Made by a program: the position numbers and the translations under genes. From Escherichia coli 042 (GTDB lineage Bacteria; Pseudomonadota; Gammaproteobacteria; Enterobacterales; Enterobacteriaceae): 64,000 nucleotides of DNA. The stretch is taken from the NCBI RefSeq assembly GCF_000027125.1, contig NC_017626.1. One strand, given 5' to 3'. The notes beneath the pieces are model-generated. The model was not told the DNA's origin. It saw nothing but the letters and a program-made list of their open reading frames with translations, and made no database searches. How positions within the stretch are numbered: the stretch's first letter is position 1; every line of letters starts with the position of its first letter. Of this stretch, positions 20,555-49,685 are shown piece after piece.

Positions 20555-21093
20555 CAATAATGCCGGAGGTTAATGTTAATGAATCACTGGCGTAATTAAC
20601 TGGATATCCATTTGTTTGCTATGAATAGTAATTAAAGTTGGTACAACTATTTATATGATTGATGTAATTTCGTTTTTTATATGAAATATCAATTTAATAT
20701 AATCCGAAAATAAAACATCTTTTCGCATGTAGAGAAACATGTCGATATGATAGTGCAGTGCAGATCATGTCATCAGGGTAGGGCGGTAGCGTATTTAATC
20801 AGGGAAAGATTACGCAACGCTGCTTTTTTGTATTGAACGATTCGCATTTTATGTTTAAAAATTGCGATATTCCTTATTTCCTGAAGCTGTTTTTATTGCT
20901 TATACATGATCAAATACTCCTTACATAATTAAGGAGAACAAAATGGAACTTAATACACGCCAACAATTTGTATTACTTAAATAGACCAGTGAAGGTACGC
21001 ATCAGAACATCCGGTGAAGTGATTAATATTTCGTTGAATATTTCTCCCGATTTTTGAAACCTGCTGCTGTAGAAATTCTGAACAGGAGGAATT

Positions 21094-21378
21094 ATGCCTT
21101 TAGCAGCCAAACTCACCGACAAAGGCACCCAGCACGACGGTTATTACGAGACCGTCATCACCGCCGGGTCATCCACCGTCTTTATCGATGGTCTTCCCGC
21201 AGCCCGTCAGGGAGATCCGCTGACGCCGCATGCTAAACCGAAGCATCCCCCTCATCCCCGTAAAATCGCCAGAGGTTCTTCAACCGTCTTTATTGACGGC
21301 CTGCCCGCCGCCAGAAGCGGTGATGCTGTTGACTGCGGCGGCGTGGTTATTGGTGGCGGTACGGTAAATATAGGCTGA
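21094..21378 (+). CDS. PAAR-repeat protein (T6SS spike-tip)
   Basis: 94 aa; duplicated SSTVFIDGLPAAR(Q/S)GD motif typical of PAAR; strong AGGAGG RBS; 18 nt upstream of vgrG. Confidence 0.75.
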   Translation: MPLAAKLTDKGTQHDGYYETVITAGSSTVFIDGLPAARQGDPLTPHAKPKHPPHPRKIARGSSTVFIDGLPAARSGDAVDCGGVVIGGGTVNIG

Positions 21379-21396
21379 TATGTCTGAGAGGTATTT

Positions 21397-23802
21397 ATGT
21401 CCTTAAAAGGTCTTCGCTTTACGCTGGAGGTTGACGGCCAGGAGCCGGACACCTTTGCAGTGGTGAATTTCAGGTTAATCCAGAACCAGTCATATCCGTT
21501 TGTGATGAGTGTGGATGTTGCCAGCGACTCTTTTATGCAGACGGCGGAGATGCTGCTGGAGAAGAAGGCGACACTGACCATCTGGCAGGGCGCAGTGGCG
21601 CAGCGTTATGTCACCGGCGTGGTGGCGGGTTTTGGCATGCAGGAGAATAACGGCTGGCAGATGCGTTATCACCTGCGTATTGAGCCGCCGTTATGGCGGT
21701 GCGGGCTGCGGCAGAACTTTCGTATCTTCCAGCAGCAGGATATCCGGACGATATCGGCCACGTTACTGAACGAGAACGGCGTCACGGAGTGGACGCCGCT
21801 GTTTTATGAGGACCATCCGGCGCGGGAGTTCTGTGTCCAGTACGGGGAGTCGGACCTGGCGTTTCTGTCCCGGCTGTGGGCGGAGGAGGGTCTTTTCTTC
21901 TTTGAGCGGTTTGCGGCGGACAGTCCGGAGCAGAAGCTGACGCTGTGCGACGATGTGGCGGGGCTGTCACAGGCGGGGGAGTTTCCGTTTAACCCGGACA
22001 CATCGGCAGGTGCGGAGACGGAGTGTGTCAGTATGTTCCGTTATGAGGCGCATGTCCGCCCGTCATCGGTGCAGAGCCAGGATTACACCTTTAAGGTGCC
22101 GGACTGGCCGGGGATGTATGAGCAGCAGGGTGAGAACCTGAACGGACAGCTGGAGCAGTATGAGATATTTGATTATCCGGGAAGGTACAAGGATGAACAG
22201 CACGGCAAGGATTTCACGCTGTACCAGATGGAGAGCCTGCGCAGTGATGCGGAAAAGGCCACAGGGCAGAGTAATTCGCCGAAGCTGTGGCCGGGAACGC
22301 GGTTTATGCTGACGGGGCATCCGCAGAAGATGCTGAACCGTGAATGGCAGGTGGTACAGAGCATACTGTCAGGAAACCAGCCGCAGGCGCTGCACGGCAG
22401 CCAGGGAAAGGGAACCACGCTGGGCAATCAGTTAGAGGTGATACCGGCGGACCGGACGTGGCGTCCACGGCTGCAAAACAAACCGAAGGTGGACGGGCCA
22501 CAGAGCGCCATCGTCACCGGTCCTGCGGGAGAGGAAATCTTCTGCGATGAACATGGACGGGTACGGGTGAAGTTCCACTGGGACCGTTATCACGGGATGA
22601 CGGAGGCGAGTTCATGCTGGGTGCGGGTATCGCAGGCGTGGGCGGGGCCGGGGTTCGGTAACCTGGCGATACCACGGGTGGGTCAGGAGGTGATAGTGGA
22701 CTTCCTGAACGGCGACCCGGACCAGCCGATAATCATGGGGCGGACGTACCATGAGGACAACCGTTCGCCGGGCGACCTGCCGGGAACGAAGACGCAGATG
22801 ACCATCCGGTCAAAAACCTATAAAGGAAGCGGATTTAACGAGCTGCGGTTTGAAGACGCCACCAGTAATGAGCAGGTGTATATCCATGCCCAGAAGAACA
22901 TGGATACGGAGGTGCTCAACGACCGGACAACGGATGTGAAACATGACCATACGGAAACCATCGGGAACGACCAGAAGATAACGGTGGTGAAGGGGCAGAC
23001 GGTTCAGGTCGGGACCAGAAAAGAAGGGGGCCACGACCAGAGTATCACGGTGGCGAACGACCGGTGCATCACGGTACGTAATGACCAGACGCTGCAGGTG
23101 ACGAATGACCGGACGGTGAGCGTGAGTAATGATGACGGCCTGTACGTCAGAAATGACCGTAAAGTGACGGTGGAAGGGAAGCAGGAGCATAAGACGACGG
23201 GGAACCATATCAGTCTGGTGGAGGGAAAGCACAGCCTGGTGGTGAAGGGGGACCTGGCGAGGAAGGTGAGTGGCGCGCTGGGGATAAAGGTGGACGGGGA
23301 TATCGTGCTGGAGAGCAGCAGCCGGATAAGCCTGAAGGTGAGTGGCTCGTTTGTGGTCATCCATTCAGGGGGCGTGGACATCGTCGGGCCGAAAATCAAT
23401 CTCAATAGCGGCGGTAGTCCGGGGACGCCGGTGCCGGCGCTGCAACCGGCGGTGCTGAAGACACTGGGGGATGAGAAGAGTGGTGATGGCAGTGATTCCG
23501 GAGAAGAAAATGAAGACTCTGGAGGGAACTGCGTGACCGGAAGTGGTGGTGATGATCGAGGTGACGATGAGGATGAACCTGAAAAATATACTCTCCAGTT
23601 CCATTTTACAGACGATGACGGGATACCGTATTCAGAAACCCGCTACATTGCCTTCTTTGAGGATGGCACGCAGACCCGCGGAGAAACGGATGAAGAGGGG
23701 TATACAGAGCGTTTTTTTGTATCTAGCAAACATGAAATTAAAGTGAAGTTGTTATTTGCGAATGATGATTTTCTCTCAATGGAAGGACACTATGGACGAT
23801 AA
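21397..23802 (+). CDS. vgrG: Type VI secretion spike protein VgrG with acidic linker and C-terminal extension domain
   Basis: 801 aa; N-terminus MSLKGLRFTLEVDGQEPDTFAVVNFRL…IWQG…RIFQ matches VgrG gp27/gp5 core; C-terminal repeat-rich beta-helix; Gly/Asp/Glu-rich linker then ~70 aa terminal domain. Confidence 0.85.
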   Translation: MSLKGLRFTLEVDGQEPDTFAVVNFRLIQNQSYPFVMSVDVASDSFMQTAEMLLEKKATLTIWQGAVAQRYVTGVVAGFGMQENNGWQMRYHLRIEPPLWRCGLRQNFRIFQQQDIRTISATLLNENGVTEWTPLFYEDHPAREFCVQYGESDLAFLSRLWAEEGLFFFERFAADSPEQKLTLCDDVAGLSQAGEFPFNPDTSAGAETECVSMFRYEAHVRPSSVQSQDYTFKVPDWPGMYEQQGENLNGQLEQYEIFDYPGRYKDEQHGKDFTLYQMESLRSDAEKATGQSNSPKLWPGTRFMLTGHPQKMLNREWQVVQSILSGNQPQALHGSQGKGTTLGNQLEVIPADRTWRPRLQNKPKVDGPQSAIVTGPAGEEIFCDEHGRVRVKFHWDRYHGMTEASSCWVRVSQAWAGPGFGNLAIPRVGQEVIVDFLNGDPDQPIIMGRTYHEDNRSPGDLPGTKTQMTIRSKTYKGSGFNELRFEDATSNEQVYIHAQKNMDTEVLNDRTTDVKHDHTETIGNDQKITVVKGQTVQVGTRKEGGHDQSITVANDRCITVRNDQTLQVTNDRTVSVSNDDGLYVRNDRKVTVEGKQEHKTTGNHISLVEGKHSLVVKGDLARKVSGALGIKVDGDIVLESSSRISLKVSGSFVVIHSGGVDIVGPKINLNSGGSPGTPVPALQPAVLKTLGDEKSGDGSDSGEENEDSGGNCVTGSGGDDRGDDEDEPEKYTLQFHFTDDDGIPYSETRYIAFFEDGTQTRGETDEEGYTERFFVSSKHEIKVKLLFANDDFLSMEGHYGR

Positions 23803-24583
23803 TAATCAAACTTCTGGACAACCAAAGCCAGAGCCAGAAGAATGTGTGAAAGAGCAAAAAATAACTGATCATTTTAAAATAATGATTGATAAGGCTCGTA
23901 AGGCACAAAAGTTGGTTTTGATAAAAAGAGCAGATGATCTTTTGAGATGGGGAGCACAGGAGGAATATGATTTCAGTAAGATCTTTGGTGTTAAAGGAAA
24001 TAAGGAGGTTAATATAAGAAAATATGGACATAATACAGGTAGGCGCATGAATGCTAGATTTCTTATGATGGATGGTGTGAGAAGATTAATGATTATAGCT
24101 AATGATTTAACAATGAGCAGTTTTATAAATTATACAGGTTGTAATGAATTTGCAGCATTCGTCAGCCCAAGTAAGGATATGCCCTATATAATTAACATAG
24201 GCGCAAAATTTGAGTATAGAGATGGCAAAAAAAATCCAGTAACGGGAAAGGATTCTCATGTTGCTACTTTATGTCATGAAATGTCTCATATTCAGTGGTA
24301 TTATGGGGATAATAAAAAAGGTGGTATGTGGTCACAGGATTATACAACTACTGATAAATATTCAACGTGCAAAGAGGATGAAGTTTCATATGACGAACAT
24401 ATCCGTATTGCAACTAAACTGATCTCTAAACAAAAAGATCAAATATTCGAGAATGCATATAACATAGAAAGATATTTTGAAATAAGATTAATTGAAAGTG
24501 AGATAGACTCGATTAATGATGAAATATTAAGCAATTCAGTTAAGAAAAAAATAGCGGAATTAGAAAAAGCACTTCTCCATTAA
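23792..24583 (+). CDS. Candidate T6SS cargo effector with HExxH zinc-metallopeptidase-like motif
   Basis: 264 aa from ATG at 23792, overlapping the vgrG stop by 11 nt; GGAAGGA RBS; HEMSH at 24275-24289; ~30% GC by eye; no family recognised. Confidence 0.5.
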   Translation: MDDNNQTSGQPKPEPEECVKEQKITDHFKIMIDKARKAQKLVLIKRADDLLRWGAQEEYDFSKIFGVKGNKEVNIRKYGHNTGRRMNARFLMMDGVRRLMIIANDLTMSSFINYTGCNEFAAFVSPSKDMPYIINIGAKFEYRDGKKNPVTGKDSHVATLCHEMSHIQWYYGDNKKGGMWSQDYTTTDKYSTCKEDEVSYDEHIRIATKLISKQKDQIFENAYNIERYFEIRLIESEIDSINDEILSNSVKKKIAELEKALLH

Positions 24584-24606
24584 CTAATAAGTCGAGAAAT
24601 ATATTA

Positions 24607-25428
24607 ATGCTGCAAGCTATAAAAAAAATCATAATAATGACAATCGTAAATATTATATTTTTCTATTCCTTTCAATCGACTGCGGATGAAATGGTTTTAA
24701 TAAAAAAATACGGGTTTGGGCTTGAGAGAGATATCAAAGGAAGGCCATTAATTTATCCTATCGAAAATTATGATGAGTGTAAGAAAAAATGCAATCATAT
24801 GAATTATATAGCGGATGTCAATGCTCAATTAGCTATGAGTAAAAAAAATAACAGGATTTTTGCTAACATAACCTTTACTAACAATAGCTCTACCACGTAT
24901 TTTTTTTCTAAATATTACCTACCTATGAAAGTAAAAGATGGAAAAGGAGATGAATATGATGCGATATGCAAAAAACCATTCAGAATCAACTCTGGGAATA
25001 TCACGTTGGACTACTTAGGTGGTTCATGTCCTTTTGAAATTAATACGAATCCTGAACGGTGGAATACTATTAAACCAGGTCGTAGTTTTTTGTTGAGTAT
25101 AACCTTAAATGATATGTATGCCTTTATACCAGGAGATAATTATTATTTTATAAAATCATCTGGCTATAAATTTGTTAATGACAAGTGGTTTACACTCAAA
25201 TCAATCAATAATATTTTTCTTTATTTTTTAAATTTAAAAATTAATTGTGCTGATGATTTTTTTGATATTAATAATTTTACTACATGTGATAATTTGTTAT
25301 TAGATGAAAAAAAACACTTTTTTATTAATCAGTTATGGGCAATTGAGGATGAAAAAAATTCTATTTACGTCACCCCTGATGAAATTTCTATAAGTATAGA
25401 CGGCGATAACTTAAAGTTGCCATATTAG
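24607..25428 (+). CDS. Candidate cognate immunity protein (periplasmic, signal-peptide-bearing)
   Basis: 273 aa, AT-rich; N-terminal hydrophobic segment IIIMTIVNIIFFYSFQSTA; several Cys; directly downstream of the effector candidate. Confidence 0.45.
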   Translation: MLQAIKKIIIMTIVNIIFFYSFQSTADEMVLIKKYGFGLERDIKGRPLIYPIENYDECKKKCNHMNYIADVNAQLAMSKKNNRIFANITFTNNSSTTYFFSKYYLPMKVKDGKGDEYDAICKKPFRINSGNITLDYLGGSCPFEINTNPERWNTIKPGRSFLLSITLNDMYAFIPGDNYYFIKSSGYKFVNDKWFTLKSINNIFLYFLNLKINCADDFFDINNFTTCDNLLLDEKKHFFINQLWAIEDEKNSIYVTPDEISISIDGDNLKLPY

Positions 25429-25447: not shown

Positions 25448-25936
25448 GTGCGCCGCTTTTTTGTACTAAATAATTCGCATTTTAGTCACGGCAGAGAAGA
25501 AATCCATCTTCATATTGTTTGCGATGTCCCTGATGAACTTATTGATTTCACGTTTGAATGGAAAGGTCAGAAGAAATTATGCGTGGCAGTCTCCTTTTGG
25601 TCAATAATAGCAGAACAAAAGAAAGAGCCAGAAATGACGGTCAGATATTATATCAGTTCTGCTGATTTAACCGCAAAAAAGTTCGCCACAGCGATACGAA
25701 ATCACTGGCACGTGGAGAATAAGCTGCACTGGCGTCTGGACGTGGTAATGAACGAAGACGACTGCAAAATAAGAAGAGGAAACGCCGCAGAATTATTTTC
25801 AGGGATACGGCACATCGCTATTAATATTTTAACGAATGATAAGGTATTCAAGGCAGGGTTAAGACGCAAGATGCGAAAAGCAGCTATGGACAGAGACTAC
25901 CTCGCGTCAGTCCTTGCGGGGAGCGGGCTTTCGTAA
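25448..25936 (+). pseudogene. ISAs1-family (H-repeat-associated) transposase, C-terminal fragment
   Basis: C-terminal ~140 aa resemble H-repeat-associated proteins ([30 protein letters not shown]…); N-terminal two-thirds absent. Confidence 0.7.
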
Positions 25937-47364: not shown

Positions 47365-48249
47365 ATGGCTATGGAAACGCAGGACATTATCAAAAGGTCC
47401 GCAACTAACTCCATCACGCCGCCTTCTCAGGTGCGTGATTACAAAGCAGAAGTCGCGAAACTTATCGACGTTTCCACCTGTATCGGTTGTAAAGCCTGTC
47501 AGGTGGCGTGTTCGGAGTGGAACGACATCCGTGATGAAGTGGGGCACTGCATCGGGGTTTACGATAACCCCGCCGATCTGAGCGCCAAGTCCTGGACGGT
47601 GATGCGCTTTAGCGAAACCGAACAGAACGGCAAGCTGGAGTGGCTGATCCGTAAAGACGGCTGTATGCACTGTGAAGATCCGGGCTGCCTGAAGGCGTGC
47701 CCGTCTGCTGGTGCAATCATTCAGTACGCTAACGGGATTGTCGATTTCCAGTCGGAAAACTGCATCGGCTGTGGTTACTGCATTGCCGGGTGTCCGTTTA
47801 ATATTCCGCGCCTCAACAAAGAGGATAACCGGGTATATAAATGCACGCTCTGCGTCGATCGCGTCAGCGTCGGCCAGGAACCGGCTTGTGTGAAAACCTG
47901 TCCGACCGGGGCTATCCACTTCGGCACCAAGAAGGAGATGCTGGAGCTGGCGGAACAGCGCGTGGCGAAACTGAAAGCGCGTGGTTACGAACATGCTGGC
48001 GTCTACAACCCGGAAGGGGTCGGTGGTACGCACGTTATGTACGTGCTGCATCACGCCGATCAGCCGGAGCTGTATCACGGTCTGCCGAAAGATCCGAAGA
48101 TCGACACCTCGGTAAGCCTGTGGAAAGGCGCGCTGAAACCGCTGGCAGCGGCTGGCTTTATTGCCACTTTTGCCGGGTTGATTTTCCACTACATCGGTAT
48201 TGGCCCGAATAAGGAAGTGGACGATGACGAGGAGGATCATCATGAGTAA
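47365..48249 (+). CDS. fdnH: Formate dehydrogenase-N beta subunit (4Fe-4S)
   Basis: 294 aa with four CxxCxxCxxxCP clusters and C-terminal TM anchor. Confidence 0.9.
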
Positions 48250-48895
48250 GTCGAAAATGATTGTGCGCACCAAATTTATTGATCGCGCCTGTCACTGGAC
48301 CGTGGTGATTTGCTTCTTCCTGGTGGCGCTGTCCGGGATTTCGTTCTTCTTCCCGACGCTGCAATGGCTGACGCAAACCTTCGGTACGCCGCAGATGGGA
48401 CGCATTTTGCACCCGTTCTTCGGCATTGCGATTTTCGTCGCGCTGATGTTTATGTTTGTGCGTTTTGTGCATCACAACATCCCGGATAAGAAAGATATTC
48501 CGTGGCTGTTGAACATTGTCGAAGTATTAAAAGGCAATGAGCACAAAGTGGCGGATGTCGGTAAGTACAACGCCGGGCAAAAGATGATGTTCTGGTCGAT
48601 CATGAGCATGATTTTCGTGCTGCTGGTGACCGGGGTGATTATCTGGCGTCCGTACTTTGCGCAGTACTTCCCGATACAGGTTGTCCGTTATAGCCTGCTG
48701 ATCCACGCGGCTGCGGGTATCATCCTGATCCACGCCATCCTGATCCATATGTATATGGCATTCTGGGTGAAAGGATCGATTAAAGGGATGATCGAAGGAA
48801 AGGTGAGCCGTCGCTGGGCGAAGAAACACCATCCACGCTGGTATCGTGAAATCGAGAAGGCAGAAGCGAAAAAAGAGAGTGAAGAAGGGATATAA
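48242..48895 (+). CDS. fdnI: Formate dehydrogenase-N gamma subunit (cytochrome b556)
   Basis: 217 aa from ATG at 48242 overlapping the fdnH stop; 4 TM. Confidence 0.9.
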
Positions 48896-48949
48896 TCTCT
48901 TTTGAACTTTAAGCTGAAAATGGCGCTGTAAAAGGCGTCATTTTCATAT

Positions 48950-49080
48950 TGTAGACAACGTAGGCTTTGTTCATGCCGGATGCGGCGTGACGCCTTATCC
49001 GGCCTACAAACCCTTCAAATCCAATAGATTGCAGTGAACTTGTAGGCCTGATAAGCGTAGCGCATCAGGCAATGTTGCGT
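48950..49080. repeat. REP element cluster downstream of fdnI
   Basis: Inverted copies GCCGGATGCGGCGTGACGCCTTATCCGGCCTACAA … GTAGGCCTGATAAGCGTAGCGCATCAGGC. Confidence 0.7.
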
Positions 49081-49122
49081 TTGTCATCAGTTCTAAATGG
49101 CGCTTTATAAAGTGCCATTTTT

Positions 49123-49407
49123 TTATTGCGTAACCAGACGGCGTAATCGCGACACATCCACCGTTTTTTCAGCCTCTGCCAGACTCCAGGCGTTTTGCAG
49201 ATTCAGCCACATTTGCGGCGAACTGCCGATCACCACGGAAAGTTTAATTGCCATTTCTGGCGTCAAAGCTGCTTTTCCGGTCAGCAATCGGCTTGCCGTT
49301 GAGGGCGCAATTTCCATTGCTCTGGCAAACTCGCGCAGGCTGACATTAAGTTCGTCCAGTGATTCCTGAATAATGTCCCCCGGGCGGGGATGATTGGCCA
49401 TTTTCAT
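49123..49407 (-). CDS. yddM: HigA-like antitoxin (XRE-family HTH)
   Basis: 94 aa with HTH ([22 protein letters not shown]); immediately downstream of and 1-nt overlapping a RelE/HigB-like ORF. Confidence 0.8.
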
Positions 49408-49685
49408 CAGTGATAGTCCTCGTAATCCAGTATGTATGCATCGCCATTGACGAATTCAAATGTGATTCGCCAGTTGCCCGAGACAGATATCGCCCAAATT
49501 CCATCGCGATCGCCGCTTAACGGGTGTAGTCGGTAACCGGGCATATCGATATCAGCAAGACAGCTTGCCGCATCAATCACAGCAAGTCGATGGCGTAATC
49601 GTTTGACTTGCGTCGGTATAACGCCGGAGGTTTTGCCGAGAAGAAACAAGTCACGCAATCCCTTGTGTCTGAAATTCATTATCAT
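49407..49685 (-). CDS. HigB-like toxin (RelE/ParE superfamily mRNA interferase)
   Basis: 92 aa small basic protein upstream of the HTH antitoxin; toxin-first order typical of HigBA; ATGA start/stop overlap. Confidence 0.65.

Follow-up and report, generated by a model that had tools for sequence, protein, structure and literature searches.

An M35-type peptidase and a candidate exported immunity protein in a probable auxiliary type VI secretion cargo operon of Escherichia coli

The C-terminal HExxH zinc peptidase of Pseudomonas aeruginosa VgrG2b is carried via a TTR-like region, is toxic only in the periplasm, and is neutralized by the exported protein PA0261 (Wood et al. 2019, PMC6899460). 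In Escherichia coli, the M35-peptidase of strain BCE049 (effector locus 1, module 5) is toxic to E. coli when it carries a PelB leader, not in the cytoplasm (Sun et al. 2021, Front Vet Sci, PMC7904677), and M35^PAR of E. coli PAR is toxic in pET22b and is neutralized by the downstream AKO63_2956 (Commun Biol 2023, PMC10673891). Our literature searches that combined aspzincin or peptidase M35 with type VI secretion found no paper. The locus described here, from a 64,000-nucleotide stretch of E. coli 042 (contig NC_017626.1; 'the window'), is the already known E. coli type VI secretion system (T6SS) M35 toxin module: its effector is annotated in RefSeq as "peptidase M35" and is identical at 262/263 residues (99.6%) to the BCE049 effector, which is encoded at the same locus (yncG ... 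yddH–nhoA) with the same gene order. With the M35 annotation already in place and periplasmic toxicity already demonstrated for the 99.6%-identical copy, there is little novelty in the module itself; an earlier note on this DNA, made from the sequence alone, had implied otherwise, and that implication has to be withdrawn now that a protein differing at one residue has been tested for compartment-specific toxicity.

In the window, the genes encoding a PAAR protein, a VgrG, a HExxH protein, and a protein with a signal peptide form a tight, operon-like block on the + strand between yncG and yddH/nhoA; we consider it very probable that this block, located at the yncG–nhoA (rhsE) hotspot of E. coli, is a T6SS cargo operon of the auxiliary ('orphan') kind. 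Its left edge is an AT-rich intergenic region (20555–21093; GC 0.33) in which a promoter is presumed; a promoter/terminator scan gave no more signal than it did with shuffled sequence, and promoter-like hexamers upstream of the PAAR gene were no commoner than in the shuffled controls. The PAAR gene (21094–21378, +) encodes the 94-aa tip of the spike (full-length match to NF033420, T6SS_PAAR_dom, E = 1.4e-46), with an AGGAGG ribosome-binding site before its ATG; the start at 21054 that the earlier note had given to the feature is that of a spurious 60-aa TTG ORF in another frame. Eighteen nucleotides downstream, vgrG (21397–23802, +) encodes the 801-aa VgrG/TssI spike protein (TIGR03361, E = 5e-180; Pfam Phage_GPD, Phage_base_V, and Gp5_trimer_C). 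The effector gene (23792–24583, +; 263 aa, no signal peptide) is directly 3' of vgrG, in the same orientation and tightly packed against it: the mechanical ORF starts at TTG 23756 (275 aa), and the RefSeq start, ATG 23792, is located behind its own GGAAGGA and overlaps the end of vgrG (TAA, 23800–23802) by 11 nt (spacing, −11 nt). From this arrangement we propose that the effector gene may be translationally coupled to vgrG. The gene for the immunity candidate, a 273-aa exported protein (24607–25428, +), follows after 23 nt. The right end of the cassette is an ISAs1-family transposase remnant (H-repeat type; 25448–25936, +; NF033564, E = 7.5e-34, C-terminal part only), which in strain EcPF15 is an annotated pseudogene.

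The GC content falls from 0.58 in the PAAR gene and vgrG core to 0.41 in the last 73 vgrG codons, 0.32 in the effector gene, and 0.28 in the immunity gene, that is, the break is located inside vgrG (whole window, 0.49). The HMM matches and these values agree with the earlier description of a PAAR protein and a full-length VgrG followed by two AT-rich ORFs, the first of them a HExxH ORF starting in the vgrG stop region. The same description had placed no hcp or tss core genes in the window; inspection of the ORFs and synteny with annotated genomes likewise identified no T6SS core genes among the other large ORFs, which are ordinary E. coli genes (yncE, ansP, yncG, yddH, nhoA, nar, fdn, adhP, maeA, dosP, a porin, and LRR proteins). 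When scanned with NCBIfam and PADLOC, neither the effector nor the immunity protein nor the two downstream ORFs gave a match.

The VgrG is 97% identical to VgrG-O2 of BCE049, and over residues 1–500 it shares about 96% identity with the VgrG encoded in the aspV-locus T6SS cluster of EcPF15. This strain carries an identical island and, ~1.3 Mb away at the aspV locus, a complete T6SS cluster (tssA-M, hcp, clpV); such a cluster elsewhere in the genome is what the earlier note had suggested looking for, and its presence in EcPF15 supports the suggested dependence of the module on a T6SS encoded at another locus. Trios of vgrG, effector, and immunity genes also occur inside bona fide T6SS main clusters, where those of Salmonella (L004) and E. 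coli (L006/L007) adjoin hcp/tssBC; in E. coli PAR, a homologous trio follows tssH (clpV), and there are two modules at the metV locus. These contexts support the cargo-island layout proposed for a periplasm-acting toxin. Because the homologues of both cargo genes were located only in vgrG/PAAR contexts, we rejected a phage or housekeeping origin for the two genes.

The last 73 residues of the VgrG (aa 729–801; 23581–23799, +), preceded by a Gly/Asp/Glu-rich linker, form a TTR-like domain, identified by conservation and profile match; no Pfam family matches it. A profile of the domain matches weakly the TTR domain of EAEC VgrG1 (6SJL, residues 781–830; E = 4.9e-4) and gives E = 0.038 with the TTR part of VgrG2b (6H56). 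The domain is kept in 8/8 VgrGs examined upstream of effector homologues, including the otherwise unrelated VgrG from the PAR metV locus. The TTR-like domain, the effector, and the immunity gene thus show a conserved three-way linkage, with the domain travelling with the effector across two T6SS types. Because the domain and the effector family are co-inherited across unrelated VgrG bodies, and because the GC break in vgrG (the drop to 0.41) is at this domain, we infer that it is most likely the docking site of the effector.

Of 5426 complete E. coli genomes, 644 (~12%) have a match to the effector/immunity region. An island of AT-rich, horizontally acquired DNA flanked by IS debris might be a silent or decaying relic with no role in competition, and several observations point in that direction: the GC content of 28–32%, the ISAs1 fragment that adjoins the module, a promoter signal that is not above chance, deletion and read-through variants in the databases (P0024, P0020), and the truncation of the EcPF15 main cluster's own vgrG beside an ISEc31 insertion. 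In the BCE049 assembly, the immunity gene region is 98% identical, and homopolymer indels, which are either sequencing errors or real decay, have led to annotation of the gene as two fragments. However, none of the four ORFs is disrupted in the window; 435 of 645 matching records have the module at 99% identity or more to that of the window, and 508 genomes have a match that covers at least 80% of the query; dN/dS is <1 for both the effector and the immunity genes, the value for the effector being 0.14–0.18 between species; and the BCE049 copy encodes an active toxin (PMC7904677). We therefore consider a relic unlikely.

Single-sequence Pfam and PDB searches with the effector gave only sub-threshold matches, including one to Aspzincin_M35 (PF14521; E = 0.005, 17.7 bits). 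A profile of 35 family members matches AsaP1 with E = 4e-22 and the Grifola frondosa peptidyl-Lys metalloendopeptidase (GfMEP) with E = 2e-20; in comparisons of predicted structures, the effector has the aspzincin catalytic fold, and AsaP1 is among its closest structural relatives. H162, E163, H166, and D183 are invariant across the alignment of the 35 members. The zinc-binding/catalytic motif HEMSH (H162-E163-M-S-H166; 24275–24289, +) aligns with the HExxH of AsaP1 and GfMEP, and D183 (24338–24340, +), the putative third zinc ligand, matches the Asp of their GTxD; its motif, GGMWSQDY, is a variant of GTxDxxYG with a longer spacer, 16 residues separating HExxH from the Asp in the effector vs 8 in GfMEP. 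Judged by its modeled fold, the effector family belongs to the true aspzincins (M35) and is not related to the VgrG2b gluzincin, although the two have been equated. A VgrG2b-type (DUF4157-type) gluzincin was considered and rejected; the fold comparison showed no thermolysin-like fold with a Glu third ligand. The earlier note had recognized a toxin family in neither downstream protein and had proposed HMM and structure searches; these searches now place the effector, by fold and profile, in the M35/aspzincin family and leave the immunity protein without a match in Pfam or NCBIfam.

In the peptidyl-Lys enzymes, the Asp and the Glu in NADxxEYF form the Lys-specific S1' pocket. In alignments, the C-terminal motif NAYNIERYF of the effector (24452–24478, +) is the counterpart of NADNHEYF in GfMEP/AsaP1; in the window clade, the NAD-motif Asp is replaced by Tyr223 (NAY223NIE226RYF), and a Lys-specific pocket is not found. 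This feature defines a sub-group and not the M35 family. Distant PAAR-linked relatives retain NADSFEYY, and some distant members of the family carry N-terminal PAAR-like sequences. As read from this motif, the window clade and the lysine-specific M35 enzymes do not have the same presumed specificity pocket; because the NAD Asp is Tyr in the effector, the specificity of the characterized M35 enzymes cannot be assumed for it.

The place of AsaP1, a toxic M35 protease of Aeromonas salmonicida, among the closest structural relatives of the effector would also fit a protease that, like AsaP1, is mainly an anti-host virulence effector, with a downstream gene that is not an immunity gene; ExPEC, urinary, and mastitis isolates are among the strains that carry the module. 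We regard this as very unlikely, given that a conserved exported partner encoded directly 3' is what marks an antibacterial toxin that acts in the periplasm, that the near-identical BCE049 protein kills E. coli from the periplasm, and that deletion of the whole of BCE049 effector locus 1 left mouse survival unchanged, unlike deletion of T6SS1 or T6SS2 (PMC7904677). The effector may nevertheless have dual targets, host and bacterial.

The N-terminus of the 273-aa immunity candidate contains K6/K7, a 15-residue hydrophobic core (residues 8–22; mean Kyte-Doolittle 2.35), and a cleavage-type site, S-T-A↓D-E; together, these features predict a Sec signal peptide (aa 1–26; 24607–24684, +) cleaved after S-T-A, in agreement with the signal peptide noted earlier. 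The prediction is based on residue features and on the equivalent sites in homologues (VSA↓DE, SFA↓SE, CYA↓SE), not on a dedicated predictor. Pfam and NCBIfam gave no family match for the protein, a weak match to DUF4352 (E = 0.019) is not interpretable, and an AlphaFold (AF2) model from a 7-sequence alignment (pLDDT 46) is unusable. A word-index homologue search retrieved near-identical E. coli sequences only, and the more distant homologues were located through synteny with effector homologues; these (25–42% identity) are encoded directly 3' of every effector homologue examined, with two tandem diverged copies in L011. Four Cys residues (C121, C141, C214, and C227) are invariant. The effector is thus always accompanied by a dedicated family of exported immunity proteins in which four cysteines are invariant, and the conserved cysteines suggest that the protein is probably disulfide-bonded.

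We mapped the PAR pair to L016 (effector, 47630–48418; immunity, 48503–49429), matching AKO63_2955/2956 to RefSeq genes by gene order, not by sequence from PMC10673891; identity to the window proteins is 30% for the effector (E = 2e-33) and 31% for the immunity protein (E = 3e-21). By analogy with this neutralized, ~30% identical pair, and given the conserved adjacency, the tandem duplication, and the signal peptide, the 273-aa protein would be expected to neutralize the effector of the window, presumably by direct inhibition. The alternative that the 273-aa protein serves as adaptor, chaperone, or second effector would be in keeping with its lack of a match to any known immunity family and its unusable AF2 model, but is highly improbable: the protein has a signal peptide whereas the effector and the spike stay in the cytoplasm until firing, so a chaperone role is topologically implausible; tandem diverged copies are typical of immunity genes; its gene evolves faster than the effector gene in a dN/dS comparison; and a homologue neutralized M35^PAR (PMC10673891).

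We are therefore confident, although short of certain, in an overall explanation in which the cargo operon encodes a T6SS spike, a periplasmic aspzincin toxin, and an exported immunity protein. The PAAR protein and VgrG would assemble into a spike compatible with the T6SS at the aspV locus of the strain. The effector, without a signal peptide of its own, would ride on this spike, most likely docked on the C-terminal TTR-like domain of the VgrG, and its delivery would be T6SS-dependent. After firing, it would act as an aspzincin (M35) zinc endopeptidase in the periplasm of a neighboring Gram-negative cell, with H162, E163, and H166 as catalytic residues and D183 as the third zinc ligand. The 273-aa protein, exported by Sec to the periplasm of the producer, would block the protease and in this way protect sister cells.

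The analysis adds little beyond published work, and as an accessory weapon the module is common in E. coli, being present in about one in eight complete genomes. Its four modest additions are the true aspzincin fold, the immunity family, the TTR linkage across two T6SS types, and the differing presumed specificity pocket. A broader interpretation is possible, albeit more doubtful than not. With the pocket changed from NAD to NAY and the zinc-Asp loop lengthened, the effector may cleave a periplasmic target unlike the known substrates of M35 enzymes; candidates would include a lipoprotein tether, a peptide of the cell wall, and a protein of the division machinery. The 273-aa partner, which is rich in Cys, may represent a new fold of protease-inhibitor immunity protein, and the TTR domain, effector, and immunity gene may constitute a portable cassette. 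If true, this cassette would plug into E. coli T6SSs of two different types.

Among the described systems, the BCE049 module is distinguished by an extra VgrG/DUF2169/PAAR-like module upstream. Upstream of both the M35^PAR effector and the window effector is a VgrG with the same TTR-like domain at its C-terminus, and both protein families, effector and immunity, are common to the two; however, the PAR module is located inside a different T6SS main cluster (metV locus) and its VgrG is split, with a separate 'DUF2345' protein as the bridge from VgrG to effector, whereas the VgrG of the window is one intact protein with no Pfam DUF2345 match. The M35^PAR toxin was equated with the VgrG2b domain (PMC10673891), and our fold comparison does not support that assignment; the mode proposed for the window module is nonetheless like that of VgrG2b, with a VgrG-borne HExxH zinc peptidase, periplasm-specific toxicity, and an exported immunity protein, and the C-terminus of the window VgrG is weakly similar to the TTR part of VgrG2b. 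EAEC VgrG1 (6SJL/6SK0) also has a C-terminal TTR-like domain and is followed by a cargo gene; its cargo is the Tle1 phospholipase, which is recruited by the TTR domain, whereas the window cargo is a protease whose binding to the domain is suggested by co-inheritance. Compared with the M35 aspzincins (1G12, GfMEP; 2X3A, AsaP1; 1EB6, deuterolysin), the window effector has ~70 extra N-terminal residues that form two helices, an additional C-terminal helix, the doubled spacer before the Asp, and Tyr223 in place of the NAD Asp. Those enzymes are secreted by Sec with a propeptide; the window effector, in contrast, would be produced intracellularly, delivered by a T6SS, and paired with a dedicated candidate immunity protein.

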